Source of the DNA: Anaeromyxobacteraceae bacterium
GTDB lineage: Bacteria; Myxococcota; Myxococcia; Myxococcales; Anaeromyxobacteraceae
Direction of reading: 5' to 3'
Assembly (NCBI GenBank): GCA_047602405.1
Contig: JASGHJ010000002.1
Location: 2,368,001-2,432,000 of the forward strand
DNA length: 64,000 nt
Every line of letters begins with the position of its first letter. The stretch's first letter is position 1. Below the pieces are notes generated by a model that saw only the letters and a program-made list of their open reading frames with translations, searched no databases and was not told the DNA's origin. Both the position numbers and the translations under genes were made by a program. Shown here in pieces: positions 15,435-20,767 of this stretch.

Positions 15435-15944
15435 TCAGTCGACCCGGTGCATCCGGCCGTCCTGCGCCTTCAGGTAGGCGTAGGAGGCCTCGAGGATCTC
15501 CTCGAGCACCGGCAGCCGGACGTCGTCGAGCCGCTTCAGGTAGACGCAGACCCGGCTCGTCGTGTGCTCGCCGAGGCGCGCGAGGTTCGCCGCGTGCCGC
15601 GCCGTCCCGTCCATCAGGTAGACGGTGAGCTTGGCGTCGCGCGGGTAGAAGCCGAGCGCGTGACCGTCCCCCTCCCGGCCGCTGTCGTACTTGAAGTGAT
15701 ACGCGTCGAACCCGATCGTGCCGACGTTCCAGACCTTCGGCCGGGCTCCACCGGAGATCCGCCGCATCAGCTGCATGAGCGCGCGGCTGTCCCTCGCCGT
15801 CTGCGGGTCCTCGAGCGCGTCGAGGCCGTCCTCGACGGAGGCCTCGCGGCCTGCGCCCGCGCTCGGGGTGGACCGCTTCTTCACCGCCGCGCTGCGCTGC
15901 CTCGGCGCCGCCTTGCTCCGGGATGGCTTCGTCCGCGTGGCCAT
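15435..15944 (-). CDS. DUF1801 domain protein
   Basis: PKVW...IGF..YHFKYDSGREGD...GF.PR...L..Y...LG.H....C.Y.KRL.DV pattern. Confidence 0.75.
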   Translation of the reverse strand: MATRTKPSRSKAAPRQRSAAVKKRSTPSAGAGREASVEDGLDALEDPQTARDSRALMQLMRRISGGARPKVWNVGTIGFDAYHFKYDSGREGDGHALGFYPRDAKLTVYLMDGTARHAANLARLGEHTTSRVCVYLKRLDDVRLPVLEEILEASYAYLKAQDGRMHRVD

Positions 15945-16035
15945 GTCACCCGTGAGCGTAGCCGCGGCGCCCCGAGATGTGCCATGACCTCCCGGGGCAC
16001 CGATGAGCAAGAGCCGTCCCGACCGTCCAAGGCGC

Positions 16036-16404
16036 ATGCCCGCGAAGAAGCCGAGCCCCGGCAGCCCGATCGACGCCTACCTCGCGAAGGTCCCGGCCGC
16101 GCGCCGGCCGCTCCTCGCGGCGCTCCGCGAGCGGATCCTCGCCGCGGCGCCGGAAGCCGAGGAGTGCATCTCCTACGGCCTCGCCGCCTTCCGCGTGCGC
16201 GGCAAGGTGGTCGCCGGGTTCCAGGCCACCGAGCAGGGCGGCTCGTACTACCCGTTCAGCGGCACGACCCTGGGGACGCTCGCGGACGCGCTCGAGGGCT
16301 GGTCGCGGACGAAGTCGGCGCTGCACTTCACGGCCGAGCGGCCGATCCCCGCGGCGCTCCTGAGGAAGCTCCTGAAGACCCGGCTCTCCGAGCTCGACGC
16401 CTGA
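16036..16404 (+). CDS. DUF1801 (YdhG-like) protein
   Basis: IDAYL......R..L..LR..I.AAAPEAEE.ISYG and HFT...PIP..LL..L pattern. Confidence 0.8.
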   Translation: MPAKKPSPGSPIDAYLAKVPAARRPLLAALRERILAAAPEAEECISYGLAAFRVRGKVVAGFQATEQGGSYYPFSGTTLGTLADALEGWSRTKSALHFTAERPIPAALLRKLLKTRLSELDA

Positions 16405-16487
16405 CCCGGTCGGGGCGGCCGGCAGGGCCGCTGCACGATCGTCGGCGCTCGCGTTCCCTCCGTCCGGAACGGCAGAATCCGACCACC

Positions 16488-17243
16488 ATGCCTCGCCCCC
16501 CCGCCCTCGCCGTCGCCCTGCTCGCCGTCGCCGGCGCCGCCTGCGACCCGCAGGCGAACGCCTCGAGCTACCGGGGCGAGCCGCTGTTCGAGTTCGACGG
16601 CTCCGTGGTCGCCGCCGCCGCGAGCGCCCTGCCCGACGTGGAGGTGGCGGTGGCCTGGCAGGACGGGAACGTCCCGGCGCTCACCTCGAAGGTCGCCTTC
16701 ACCGAGCGCAACCCGGTCTCCCGGAGCGGCACGACGGGCACCTTCACCGTGCGCATCTACGTGCCGCCGCCCTCCGCCGCGTACCTCGCCCTCGCGCCCG
16801 GCGAGCCCCGGCTCGGGGTGGCCACGCTGGGCGCGTTCCCTCCCGCGGGCGGGACCTCCGGGACGTCCGCCCCGCCCTACCCGGCGGGCGGGTTCTACTC
16901 CGCCTACGACCTGCGCCACTGGGTCGTCCACCTCGCCGCCGACGCGCCCGCGGGGTCGGCCACCGCCTGGTGGCTGGGCGGCCCCGCCGCGGCGGGCTTC
17001 CACCTCGTGGAGCTCACCGACGCGGGCTGCCCGACCGCCGCGGAGGTGGCGGCCTGCGTGACCGCGCTCGCCGCGCTCGGCGTGCCCGCGACCTCGACCG
17101 ACCTGCCCGCCGGCGTGGGCGGGGGCGGCGCCCAGACGCTGTGCAGCACCCGGTACCGCCTCTCCCCGTCCCCCGCCGCCGCCCCCGTGTCCTTCGAGCT
17201 CGGCGGCCCCTCCGGCGCGAGCGACCCCTGGGCCTGCCCGTGA
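16488..17243 (+). CDS. Hypothetical lipoprotein
   Basis: Lipobox-like LLAVAGAA-C followed by DPQ...YRGEPL; TGA overlaps the sigma GTG. Confidence 0.75.
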   Translation: MPRPPALAVALLAVAGAACDPQANASSYRGEPLFEFDGSVVAAAASALPDVEVAVAWQDGNVPALTSKVAFTERNPVSRSGTTGTFTVRIYVPPPSAAYLALAPGEPRLGVATLGAFPPAGGTSGTSAPPYPAGGFYSAYDLRHWVVHLAADAPAGSATAWWLGGPAAAGFHLVELTDAGCPTAAEVAACVTALAALGVPATSTDLPAGVGGGGAQTLCSTRYRLSPSPAAAPVSFELGGPSGASDPWACP

Positions 17244-17728
17244 GCCTCGACCGCGAGGGCGTCGAGCGGCTCTACCGCGCCCACGGCGGGGTGGTGCTGC
17301 GCCGCGCGCGGATGCTGCTCGGCAACGAGGCCGACGCGCAGGAGGCGCTGCAGGAGGTCTTCGCGGGGCTCCTGCGCGCGCCCGACGAGATCCGCGACCC
17401 CGCCGCGGTCATCGCCTGGCTCTACCGCGCGACCACCCACCTGTGCCTCAACGTGCTGCGCGGCCGGCGCACGAGCGGGAGGCTCCTCGAGCGGCACCTC
17501 CGGCCGCTGCCGGCGTCGGCGCCCTCGCGCGCCGACGCGCTCGCCGAGGTGCGCAGCGTGCTCGCCGGGCTCCCCGCGGAGCTCGCCGCCGCCTTCGTCC
17601 ACCACCACCTCGACGGCATGACCTACGACGAGATCGGCGAGCAGCTCGGCTGCTCCCGGCGAAAGGTCGGCTACCTCCTGCAGAAGGCCGAGGCGCTGCT
17701 CCGGGAACCCGGGGAGAGGACCGCATGA
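17240..17728 (+). CDS. ECF-type RNA polymerase sigma-70 factor
   Basis: Region 2 (LY..H...V.RRA..LLG..ADA.EALQEVF, WLYR..T.LCLN) and region 4 (GMTYDEIG..LG.SRR.V). Confidence 0.9.
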   Translation: MSLDREGVERLYRAHGGVVLRRARMLLGNEADAQEALQEVFAGLLRAPDEIRDPAAVIAWLYRATTHLCLNVLRGRRTSGRLLERHLRPLPASAPSRADALAEVRSVLAGLPAELAAAFVHHHLDGMTYDEIGEQLGCSRRKVGYLLQKAEALLREPGERTA

Positions 17729-18450
17729 CCACCCCTGCCCTCGCGCGCGCAGGCTGGACCGCCTGCCACTCCGCGCTCCACCTCGACCGCTGGCTCGCCG
17801 GCGCGCTGCCCGCGCCCGAGGCCGCGGCACTCGCCGCCCACGTGGAGGGCTGCGCGCGCTGCGGGGACGCCGTGGCGGAGCTCCGGGCCGCCCGGGCCGA
17901 CCCGCTGCCGCCGCTCCGCGCGCCCGCCGCCGTCGCCGGGCCCGCCCCCGCGCCCCCGCGCCGCCGGGGCGCGCTCGTCCCGGCGGCCGCGGCCGCGCTC
18001 GCCGCCGCCGCGGCGGTGCTCCTCGTGGTCGGCCCGGGCCCCGTGGAGCGCACGAAGGGGGGCGCGGTGGCGCTCGGGATGTGGGTCCAGCACGGCGGCG
18101 AGGTCCGCCGGGCCGGCCCCGGCGAGGCGGTCGCGCCGGGGGACGCGGTCCGCTTCTCCGTGACGACGCCGTGGCCCGCGTACGTCGCCGTGCTCTCGGT
18201 CGACGCCGCGGGCCGCGCCTCGGTCTACTACCCCGACGGCGCCACCGCGGCGCCGGTCGCGCCGGGCACCGACGTCGCGCTCCCGCTCGCGACCCGGCTC
18301 GACGGCACCGCCGGCCCGGAGCGGATCGTCGGGCTCTTCTGCGAGCGCGCGATCGCGCTCGAGCCGGTGCGCGCGGGGCTCGAGCAGGGCGACGCGGGCG
18401 CGGTGCCCGCCGGCTGCCAGGAGACCCGTTGGTCCTTCGTGAAGCGCTAG
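17725..18450 (+). CDS. Zinc-binding anti-sigma factor (ZAS/zf-HC2) with TM helix and DUF4384-like extracytoplasmic domain
   Basis: HVEGCARC (HxxxCxxC), hydrophobic helix, RTKGG, PGD.VRF, V.SVD..G..SVYYP, LDGT.GPE; ATGA overlap with sigma. Confidence 0.8.
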   Translation: MTTPALARAGWTACHSALHLDRWLAGALPAPEAAALAAHVEGCARCGDAVAELRAARADPLPPLRAPAAVAGPAPAPPRRRGALVPAAAAALAAAAAVLLVVGPGPVERTKGGAVALGMWVQHGGEVRRAGPGEAVAPGDAVRFSVTTPWPAYVAVLSVDAAGRASVYYPDGATAAPVAPGTDVALPLATRLDGTAGPERIVGLFCERAIALEPVRAGLEQGDAGAVPAGCQETRWSFVKR

Positions 18451-19997
18451 CCGCCGCGCTCGCCGCGGCCGTGCTCGCCCTGCCCGGCGCCGCCGGCGCG
18501 GAGCCGGCGCGGTACGCCGTCGTGGCGGGCAACGACGCCGGACTCCCCCCCGACGCGCCGCTGCGCTGGGCGGAGGCGGACGCCGAGCGGGTCGCGGCCG
18601 CGCTCGCGGAGGTCGGCGGCGTGCCCGCCGAGAACGTGGTGCTGCTGCGCGGCCAGGACGCCGGGGCGCTCCGCCGCGCGCTCATCGCGGTGAACGAGCG
18701 GGTGCGCCTCGCCGGCCGCGAGGCGGTGCTCTTCGTCTACTACTCCGGCCACGCCGACGCCGACGCGCTGCACCTCGGCGCGTCCGCGCTGCAGCTCGCG
18801 GAGCTCGAGCAGCTCGTGCGCGGCTCCGCCGCGACCTTCCGGCTGCTCGTGCTCGACGCCTGCCGCTCCGGCGCGCTGACCCGGGTGAAGGGGGGCCGTC
18901 CCATCCCGCCCTTCGAGCTCAAGGCGAGCGAGCGCGCCCCGGGCGAGGGCGCGGTGTTCCTCACCTCGAGCTCGGCGTCGGAGGACAGCCAGGAGTCGGA
19001 CGAGCTGCGCGGGAGCTTCTTCACGCACGCGCTCCTCTCCGGCCTCCTCGGCGCCGCCGACGAGGACGGCGACGGCCGGGTGACGCTCGAGGAGGTCTAC
19101 CGCCACGCCTACGCGGCGACGCTCCGCAACACGAGCCGCACCTGGGCCGGCACGCAGCACCCGACCTTCCAGTACGACGTGCGCGGCCAGGGCGACGTCG
19201 TGCTCGCCACCCTGCCCTCGACGGGCGGCGGCCGGGGCTGGCTCGCGCTCCCGGAGGGGCAGGACTGGCTCGTGTTCCGCGACTCGGCCGACGGGCCGGT
19301 GGTGGGCGAGGTGGCCCGGGCCGACCGCGCGCGGCGCCTCTCGGTGAAGCCGGGCACCTACTTCGTGCGCGGCCGCGGCGCCGACGTGCTCCTCGAGGGC
19401 GAGCTCGCGGCCACGGCGGGCGGCACCGCGGCGCCGGATCCCGCGCGCCTCCGGCGCACCGCGTACGCGCGCCTGGTGAGGAAGGGGCTCTCCGACCTGG
19501 GCCTCTCGGGCTCGGTCGAGCTCGAGGGGCGGACGCGCGTCGCGCTCTCCTCGGAGGGGCGCACCTGCACGGGCGCGGCGGCGGGCGTGGCGGTCGCGCT
19601 CCGCCCGCTCACGCTGCAGGCCCGGTTCGGCTGGTGCCGGAGCGGCTTCGAGCAGGGCCCGCTCCGCGCGACCACCGAGGGCTTCGACCTCGAGGTCGGC
19701 GCGACGCGGGTCTGGGACGTCGGCGCCGGCACCGTGGAGCTCGGCGTGCTCGCCGGGAGCGCGGTGCTCCAGCAGCGCTTCCGGACGCCGGGGGTCGCGC
19801 CGTCCCGCACGAGCGCGGCGCTCCAGCTCGCCCCGGTGCTCTCCGCCTCGCGAGACCTCGGCGCGCGGACCTACGTCTACGCCTCGCTCTCCGGGGCGAC
19901 GTACCTCTTCCGCCTCGAGGACGGCGAGCGGCAGTCGGTCCGCTTCGCGCCCTCGTTCGCGCCGCGCGGCGCGCTCGGGCTCGGCGTGAGGTGGTGA
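18429..19997 (+). CDS. Exported caspase-family (peptidase C14) protein with probable C-terminal outer-membrane beta-barrel
   Basis: TTG after AGGAG; signal peptide; YYSGHA and LDACRSG catalytic dyad; ESDELRGSFFTH; EF-hand-like DEDGDGRVTLEE; alternating beta-strand pattern ending LGLGVRW. Confidence 0.85.
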   Translation: MVLREALAAALAAAVLALPGAAGAEPARYAVVAGNDAGLPPDAPLRWAEADAERVAAALAEVGGVPAENVVLLRGQDAGALRRALIAVNERVRLAGREAVLFVYYSGHADADALHLGASALQLAELEQLVRGSAATFRLLVLDACRSGALTRVKGGRPIPPFELKASERAPGEGAVFLTSSSASEDSQESDELRGSFFTHALLSGLLGAADEDGDGRVTLEEVYRHAYAATLRNTSRTWAGTQHPTFQYDVRGQGDVVLATLPSTGGGRGWLALPEGQDWLVFRDSADGPVVGEVARADRARRLSVKPGTYFVRGRGADVLLEGELAATAGGTAAPDPARLRRTAYARLVRKGLSDLGLSGSVELEGRTRVALSSEGRTCTGAAAGVAVALRPLTLQARFGWCRSGFEQGPLRATTEGFDLEVGATRVWDVGAGTVELGVLAGSAVLQQRFRTPGVAPSRTSAALQLAPVLSASRDLGARTYVYASLSGATYLFRLEDGERQSVRFAPSFAPRGALGLGVRW

Positions 19998-20014
19998 CCG
20001 CGCCGGGCGGCGCG

Positions 20015-20767
20015 CTACCGGCCCGCGAGCCCGCGCAGGTGCCCGAGCACCATCTCCAGCCCCTCCCTGCGCGTGTAGAGGTCGGGCGGCCCCTCGAGCA
20101 GCCCGTCGGCCATCACCCGCGCGACCTCCTCGACCGGCTGCGCGCCCGGCAGCGCGCGCGAGTCGGGGCCGCCGCCGAGCGCGTTCACGCCGAACTCCGT
20201 GGCCACGACGCCGGGCAGCACCGTCACGAGCCTCAGGCCGGGCGCGTCGTTCGCGAGCTCGAGCCGGGCCGTCTCGGTGAGCGAGTCGAGCGCGGCCTTC
20301 GCGGCGGAGTAGGCCGAGCGGAGGGTCGCGACCGGCACGCGCGAGAGCATCGAGGAGACGTTCGCGACCACGCCGGTCCCGCGCGCCTTCATGTGCGGGA
20401 TCGCGACCTGCATGCCGTACAGGGCGGACCGGAGGTTGTCGCGGAACACCACCTCGAGGTCCTCGTCGGTCAGCGCGAGCCAGGGCTTCGTGATGCCTCG
20501 CCCGGCGTTGTTGACCCACACGTCCACCCGGCCGAACCGCGCGAGCGCCGCCGCGAGGGCGCGCTCGTGGTCGGCCCTGCGCGTCACGTCGCCCGCCACG
20601 AGCTCGGCGGCCGCGAGGCCGCGCGCGACCTCCCGGAGCTTCTCCTCCCGCCGCGCCACGAGCACGAGCCTCGCCCCGCGCCGATCGAGCTCCGCCGCGA
20701 GCGCCGCGCCGATGCCCGCGCTCGCGCCCGTCACCACCACCACCTGCTCCGCCCAGGTCTTCGCCAT
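20015..20767 (-). CDS. SDR family oxidoreductase
   Basis: TGASAGIG, NNAG, YSAAK. Confidence 0.92.
   Translation of the reverse strand: MAKTWAEQVVVVTGASAGIGAALAAELDRRGARLVLVARREEKLREVARGLAAAELVAGDVTRRADHERALAAALARFGRVDVWVNNAGRGITKPWLALTDEDLEVVFRDNLRSALYGMQVAIPHMKARGTGVVANVSSMLSRVPVATLRSAYSAAKAALDSLTETARLELANDAPGLRLVTVLPGVVATEFGVNALGGGPDSRALPGAQPVEEVARVMADGLLEGPPDLYTRREGLEMVLGHLRGLAGR

Follow-up and report, generated by a model that had tools for sequence, protein, structure and literature searches.

The genome of an Anaeromyxobacteraceae bacterium (GenBank assembly GCA_047602405.1; 6.16 Mb, 74% GC) carries four overlapping genes that encode a lipoprotein, a sigma factor of the extracytoplasmic function (ECF) family, its zinc-binding anti-sigma factor, and an exported caspase. 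We analyzed them within a 64,000-nucleotide stretch of contig JASGHJ010000002.1 (the window), where the four open reading frames (ORFs) occupy positions 16488..19997 of the forward strand. The lipoprotein and sigma factor genes share a GTGA at 17240, the sigma and anti-sigma factor genes share an ATGA at 17725, and the last two genes overlap by 22 nucleotides (18429–18450), with the caspase ORF starting at a TTG codon that has GGAG ahead of it. All of these coordinates and overlaps agree with an initial annotation of the window, which also proposed that an outer-membrane-anchored caspase cleaves the anti-sigma factor and frees the sigma factor to transcribe the lipoprotein-led operon.

The sigma factor (17240..17728, 162 amino acids) has the Sigma70_r2 and r4_2 domains above the Pfam cut-offs and scores 73 bits against TIGR02937. 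It contains regions 2 and 4 only and is followed by a gene whose product combines an HxxxCxxC motif with a single transmembrane helix, the arrangement of ECF sigma factors and their zinc-associated anti-sigma factors. This second protein (17725..18450, 241 amino acids) matches zf-HC2 in its zinc-binding N-terminus and DUF4384 in its periplasmic part, both above the Pfam cut-offs. The HxxxCxxC motif (17839..17862) is contributed by H39, C43, and C46, with C14 (17764) as the likely fourth ligand, and hydropathy places the helix at residues 84–102 (17974..18030). The anti-sigma factors of the loci examined below have the motif in 57/65 cases and the helix in 63/65. No solved structure was found to match a profile of the periplasmic part.

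The last gene (18429..19997) codes for a 522-residue metacaspase with a signal peptide (amino acids 1–24), a caspase domain, a small beta domain, and a predicted C-terminal barrel. The signal peptide was called by eye, as were the similar N-termini of nearly all the caspases in a set of 66 loci (see below). The caspase domain matches Peptidase_C14 (PF00656) above the cut-off (E 1.2e-9), and its model aligns with metacaspase 4 over 205 residues (Z 22.7, root-mean-square deviation [rmsd] 2.6), with animal caspases tying. The catalytic dyad of His108 (18750) and Cys145 (18861) spans, together with Asp143, positions 18750..18863 and is invariant in 66/66 loci and 149/149 homologues. Four acidic residues (D51, D143, E185, and E189) are also invariant in the 66 loci, and D51 aligns with the conserved 'NDA' aspartate of metacaspases. 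We take these residues to lie in the specificity pocket. Metacaspases cleave after Arg or Lys (10.1101/2023.06.23.546230), and the acidic residues match those expected for an enzyme predicted to have this specificity. Furthermore, the enzyme contains an EF-hand-type loop (D211–E222; 19059..19094), which is conserved at D211 (149/149), D215 (141/149), and E222 (148/149) and weakly matches a calcium-binding protein (E 0.025).

The caspase model (mean predicted local distance difference test [pLDDT] 93.8) continues from the small beta domain through a short helix into eight long strands, which are predicted to form an outer-membrane barrel (19506..19991). The top Foldseek match of the model is the OmpA barrel (9fzd, E 2.8e-8, TM 0.68 by target), followed by caspases and MALT1. 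As in OmpA-like barrels, the eight strands are amphipathic and the C-terminus is aromatic: the final residue is Trp522, and F, W, or Y ends 90 of the 149 homologues. Cys380 and Cys403 sit on adjacent strands and co-vary (both in 68 homologues, neither in 80, and one alone in 1), as anticipated if an exported protein formed a disulfide there. Autotransporter barrels have 12 strands, and membership in that class was rejected on the architecture of the model. In 8-strand barrels both termini are on the periplasmic side, so the caspase domain should be periplasmic. The features assigned to both proteins in the initial annotation could all be located, including the zinc-binding motif, helix, and DUF4384-like domain of the anti-sigma factor and the signal peptide, dyad, EF-hand-like loop, terminal tryptophan, and barrel-like C-terminus of the caspase.

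The first gene (16488..17243) codes for a 251-residue lipoprotein with the lipobox cysteine at Cys19 (16542). It belongs to a family tied to this module but has no Pfam family, and only 2 of 76 family members give weak single matches. The lipoprotein is modeled as a beta-sandwich with a helical tail capable of forming a disulfide (pLDDT 86). Foldseek returned no match for the model at E 0.001, and the best structural alignment covers 101 residues (Z 5.2, rmsd 4.7). The lipoprotein may be a sensor, a regulator of the caspase, or an output of the system.

Conservation and gene order

The operon belongs to a module that is real and widespread. The host genome holds six caspases of this kind, every one behind a sigma and an anti-sigma factor gene, and the closest named relative of the caspase in the window (95%) is titled Anaeromyxobacter sp. 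The caspase domain was found in 191 of 251 genomes of the phylum (one unpublished genome, G181, counted in), frequently in several copies, as anticipated from the recurrence in myxobacteria noted in the initial annotation. A search of cluster representatives gave 2351 matches at E 1e-30 or better. We examined gene order in a set of 66 loci comprising the six of the host genome and 60 chosen among the 150 listed of 696 matches. The sigma factor, anti-sigma factor, and caspase occur together in 65 of them and are collinear in 64; the exceptions are L057, where the sigma/anti-sigma pair is inverted, and L100, which lacks the pair within 11 kb. Similarly, 70 of the 72 loci with sufficient room among the 80 closest named ones have the sigma and anti-sigma factor genes upstream of the caspase.

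The lipoprotein family is present in 53/57 of the closest named loci, in 51 of these upstream, and in 33/66 loci of the broader set (16 upstream and 17 downstream). With the lipoprotein as the starting point instead, we found a caspase at most 1.5 kb away in 28 of the 30 best loci, about half of which were already among those used to build the profile. Because the triad is near-constant and the lipoprotein family varies across loci, the triad can be regarded as the core and the lipoprotein as a subtype-specific partner. The conserved gene order postulated in the initial annotation therefore stands for the sigma factor, anti-sigma factor, and caspase but not for the lipoprotein as a constant fourth member. 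The four-gene form is found in cultured Sorangium and Archangium, and other subtypes bear different lipoproteins. For example, a second subtype (L007, G000:C2:1975447-1980452; L066–L087) has two flanking lipoproteins of about 310–330 amino acids, which in L007 gave no Pfam match, and in a third (L006) lipoproteins with RCC1 repeats come after.

Lys-Gly sites and promoter motif

Three conserved Lys-Gly (K-G) dipeptides, two in the caspase and one in the anti-sigma factor, are candidate cleavage sites. K-G is absent from the sigma factor and lipoprotein of the operon. The first, K154-G155 (T-R-V-K-G; 18888..18893), follows the catalytic Cys by nine residues, in the loop modeled with the lowest confidence, and is the proposed activation cut (K in 66/66 and 148/149). 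The second, K352-G353 (19482..19487), ends the helix that precedes the barrel and could be a release cut. Its Lys is found in 62/66 loci, and the larger set of 149 has 139 K and 10 R at this position and G353 in 148. A paralogue with a far longer C-terminus of glycine-rich repeats (L010, G000:C1:988710-990845) has R-G rather than K-G at this junction.

The third dipeptide, K111-G112 of the anti-sigma factor (E-R-T-K-G; 18055..18060), lies nine residues outside the transmembrane helix and is the proposed site-1 cut. Its two residues are the top two conserved columns of the periplasmic part and are kept in 61/65, 77/78, and 115/119 homologues of partly overlapping sets. The misses are three R-G and one frameshift in the first set and a contig end in the second. 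The caspase loop and anti-sigma sites have R-x-K-G in common, with R in 122/149 and 51/64 sequences, respectively, even though Lys makes up about 2% of residues. In a distant subtype (L261, L262, L277, L278, L279, and L282), the caspase is lipoprotein-like and has an extra E-K-G near the N-terminus; E-K-G is also found in several of its anti-sigma factors, possibly reflecting co-variation of cut sites.

Anti-sigma factors that lack a neighboring caspase provide a natural control. The first such orphan pair, with neither caspase nor K-G, came from a DUF4384 search independent of our alignments, and further orphans came from paired searches of 46 family genomes and from fetched regions. To score the caspase as absent, we looked within 1.5 to 4 kb of the pair and, for the family genomes, also genome-wide. 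The count leaves out two anti-sigma factors at contig ends (including L263), a fragment lacking the sigma factor (L274), and L258, L259, and L260, which are stand-alone transmembrane DUF4384 proteins without zinc finger, sigma factor, caspase, or K-G. Among the 16 caspase-less pairs with room, 4 kept K-G, 2 have R-G, and 10 lost the motif, so K-G is retained in 77/78 anti-sigma factors with a neighboring caspase versus 4/16 without one. A quick tree built without the motif places 14 of the 16 orphans in four lineages of one subfamily, and the decay thus amounts to four events, not sixteen. Within these lineages, the motif is deleted in four members, K is replaced by T in one, G is lost in three, and the remaining six have K, R, or Q (two each). 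The two orphans outside the four lineages retain K-G. Orphans lacking the motif still have the sigma factor, zinc finger, and DUF4384. The comparison still shows that K-G is maintained mainly where the caspase is present.

A candidate ECF-type promoter (CTGCACG-N14-CGTTCCC; 16431..16458, forward strand) precedes the lipoprotein start by 30 nucleotides and is the top-scoring site of the gap before the operon. We derived the motif by expectation-maximization (EM) from the intergenic DNA before the operons of other genomes, leaving out the window and its twin. An earlier search over regions that included coding DNA returned only codon patterns and was discarded. The EM motif (TTGCCC, about 14 nucleotides, CGGTCC) has a log-likelihood of 141.7 compared to 43–51 in three shuffled sets, which were run with fewer starts. 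In a held-out test of 56 loci, 18 reach 12 bits at the right spacing versus 0–5 at six shifted spacings. The operons are therefore preceded by a conserved two-part element of the type used by ECF sigma factors, and the search for a shared upstream motif suggested in the initial annotation placed it before the lipoprotein gene. ECF sigma factors autoregulate (PMC7826278), and we infer from this analogy that the sigma factor of the operon reads the motif.

The candidate regulon may take in unlinked lipoprotein genes. Three of the top ten sites in the host genome are 25–39 nucleotides before such genes (C1:1099465, C2:81486, and C1:1191129); an automatic filter tallied two of the three, and the top ten at every shifted spacing had none. 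A strict form of the promoter pattern has 3 genomic occurrences versus 2.3 expected, so its count alone is chance, and this form was picked after the genome sites were known. The last of the three genes (L131, G000:C1:1191195-1194026) codes for a 943-residue beta-propeller lipoprotein (PF09826) related to the product of the gene heading the operon in close relatives (L042–L050). The propeller gene may have moved yet stayed in the regulon. A variant motif (TGTCCC ... GTGT) precedes the sigma factor gene in loci of other subtypes (G000:C2:927, C2:2558462, L067, L068, L080, L088, L093, and L094), which suggests paralogue-specific promoters. We also noted a short inverted repeat (CGTTCC ... GGAACG; 16454–16469) that overlaps the second promoter block in the window.

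Proposed proteolytic relay and alternative readings

The operon probably encodes a trans-envelope proteolytic relay, in which a barrel-anchored caspase would cut after Lys at the three K-G sites, with the sigma factor set free by the final cut. A signal, perhaps relayed by the cognate lipoprotein or calcium, would activate the caspase, which would then cleave its own loop at K154. The anti-sigma site adjoins the inner membrane, whereas the predicted anchor of the enzyme lies in the outer membrane, and this geometry is best read as requiring a release cut; the caspase would probably have to leave the barrel by cleavage at K352 before it reached the anti-sigma factor. Cleavage at K111 would remove DUF4384 and leave a 9-residue stub, and RseP would then cleave the transmembrane helix. 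In M. xanthus, RseP degrades the anti-sigma factor DdvA after removal of its periplasmic part (PMC11506125), and the host genome has two RseP genes above the TIGR00054 cut-off. Transcription by the freed sigma factor from TGCA/CC-N14-CG(G/T)TCC would cover other lipoprotein genes as well as the operon itself. The relay combines directly observed elements (gene content and order, the intact dyad, the three conserved sites with their decay in orphans, the promoter motif, and the RseP genes) with a predicted barrel fold. The mechanism put forward in the initial annotation, with cleavage as a predicted step, gains support from the shared K-G, the orphan decay, and the promoter motif. Two outcomes named there as refuting it could be checked, a C-terminus that fails to model as a barrel and a gene order that is not conserved, and neither was observed.

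Several observations weigh against the relay. Four orphans retain K-G and two have R-G, and these cases are ambiguous, since a paralogous caspase is encoded elsewhere in most of the genomes concerned. The orphan tree is a quick version with several forks open, and related sequences do not count as independent. K352 sits at the end of a predicted helix instead of adopting the extended shape usual for caspase sites, and the residues upstream of it depart from R-x-K-G. In three loci the anti-sigma factor has R-G while the caspase retains K-G. The promoter site in the window is middling, with 42 of 1000 shuffles scoring as high and a rank of 115 of 286 genome-wide. The periplasmic location of the caspase is deduced from the topology of the modeled barrel alone, and the cuts at K111, K154, and K352 are proposed from sequence.

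The main rival, which we consider unlikely, is that the caspase engages K-G in a way that does not trigger the response. The cuts could be constitutive maturation, or R-x-K-G of the anti-sigma factor could hold the caspase in check as a pseudo-substrate, and the signal would pass through DUF4384 or the zinc finger. This reading accommodates the orphan decay and every part of the conservation data, and it agrees with the persistence of the sigma factor, zinc finger, and DUF4384 in orphans without K-G, where the pair lasts in the absence of a caspase. A caspase inhibitor subject to cleavage is known (PCi; 10.1101/2023.06.23.546230). However, a cut just outside the transmembrane helix would strip the whole periplasmic domain, which is the state in which DdvA becomes an RseP substrate (PMC11506125), and the sigma factor would presumably be always on if that cut were constitutive.

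It is less probable still that the caspase is among the outputs of the regulon, acting as a surface or released protease in predation, envelope remodeling, or lipoprotein processing, and that a general site-1 protease cuts the anti-sigma factor. The caspase gene would be co-transcribed behind the sigma factor promoter like other targets, a secreted enzyme would be well served by a release site at K352, and PCaspase, once activated, is broad in specificity (10.1101/2023.06.23.546230). Yet this reading leaves unexplained why the most conserved residues of the anti-sigma factor match the caspase loop and why K-G decays without the caspase. The predicted 8-strand barrel is also narrower than the 12-strand barrel of autotransporters. 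We give very little weight to a last reading, in which no cut is ever made at the K-G motifs and they serve as structural turns or dock another partner. Turns often have Gly behind a charged residue and K352 is at a helix end, but the dipeptide recurs across two proteins in three structural contexts unrelated to one another, fits the predicted basic specificity, and in the caspase loop falls in a low-confidence region.

The relay would be a variant of ECF proteolytic signaling. In the RseA/DegS/RseP pathway a single-transmembrane anti-sigma factor is cut sequentially, and in TonB-dependent cell-surface signaling an outer-membrane barrel relays the signal. The site-1 protease of the former is a serine protease of the inner membrane and the barrel of the latter is a TonB receptor, whereas the relay proposed here would use as site-1 protease a dedicated caspase with a small barrel of its own. 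In the DdvS/DdvA system of M. xanthus, an ECF sigma factor is paired with a single-transmembrane anti-sigma factor with a CHCC zinc finger and a caspase-family protease is proposed to cut the linker near the membrane before RseP acts (PMC11506125). However, the protease of that system is part of the anti-sigma factor itself, as a TPR-CHAT domain, and the regulon comprises CBASS and CRISPR genes (PMC11506125), whereas the operon in the window encodes its C14 enzyme separately, with a barrel predicted for the outer membrane, and has a candidate regulon of lipoproteins. DdvA-type membership was ruled out, as the 241-residue anti-sigma factor has only DUF4384 beside its zinc finger and transmembrane helix and no TPR-CHAT.

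Cytoplasmic defense systems offer further parallels. Within type III-E CRISPR, the caspase-family protease Csx29 cuts the linker of Csx30, an RpoE-binding protein whose C-terminal domain is in some cases DUF4384 (10.1101/2022.08.17.504292). Unlike the relay, Csx29/Csx30/RpoE is RNA-triggered, relies on a CHAT protease, and has no transmembrane helix, barrel, or lipoprotein. The SAVED-CHAT/PCaspase/PCc-sigma/PCi system of the myxobacterium Haliangium ochraceum likewise encodes a cleavage-activated C14 caspase with a sigma factor, but it is cytoplasmic, is triggered by cyclic oligoadenylate, and cuts the sigma factor itself with broad specificity (10.1101/2023.06.23.546230). Compared by description only, ECF216 resembles the sigma factor of the operon in its restriction to Myxococcales, its zinc-finger anti-sigma factor with one transmembrane helix at +1, and its neighboring EF-hands, but the available text mentions no caspase and calls the promoter motif not conserved (PMC7826278). 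We dropped a possible link to the 'act' operon and ActD of M. xanthus, for which no supporting paper was found.

Operons of a sigma-70 factor and a metacaspase were noted in 2012 in Anaeromyxobacter, Haliangium, Sorangium, Ralstonia, Fibrobacter, and M. xanthus DK1622, the latter with four (PMC3501461). The shared gene pair and taxa indicate that they are very probably the same module, although the available text names no anti-sigma factor, barrel, lipoprotein, cleavage site, or mechanism (PMC3501461). We found no paper on the mechanism of the module in the literature searched, which left most subscription journals outside and included part of an ECF supplement; as far as that literature goes, the mechanism is undescribed. 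More tentatively than the relay itself, we suggest that these operons form an undescribed class of trans-envelope signaling, multicopy across myxobacteria, in which an outer-membrane-tethered caspase zymogen, triggered by a cognate lipoprotein and self-processing and self-releasing at Lys-Gly, would cross the periplasm, serve as a site-1 protease dedicated to the anti-sigma factor of the same operon, and induce a lipoprotein regulon.

To our knowledge, most bacterial caspase homologues have no known substrate. The bacterial caspases worked out in the literature consulted serve phage defense. If the relay is correct, this large family gains a non-lethal signaling role with a named substrate and three exact cut sites, and ECF signaling gains a new kind of site-1 protease. 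Each cut site can be probed with a single point mutation, and the predicted promoter is a ready reporter.

Genomic surroundings

Within 16300–20200 we found neither a sigma-70 promoter nor an intrinsic terminator. Pfam assigns the genes flanking the operon to unrelated families, a DUF1801 pair upstream and a convergent short-chain dehydrogenase downstream. The divergent DUF1801 genes (15435–15944, reverse strand, and 16003–16404, forward strand) occupy the position that the propeller lipoprotein gene has in close relatives.

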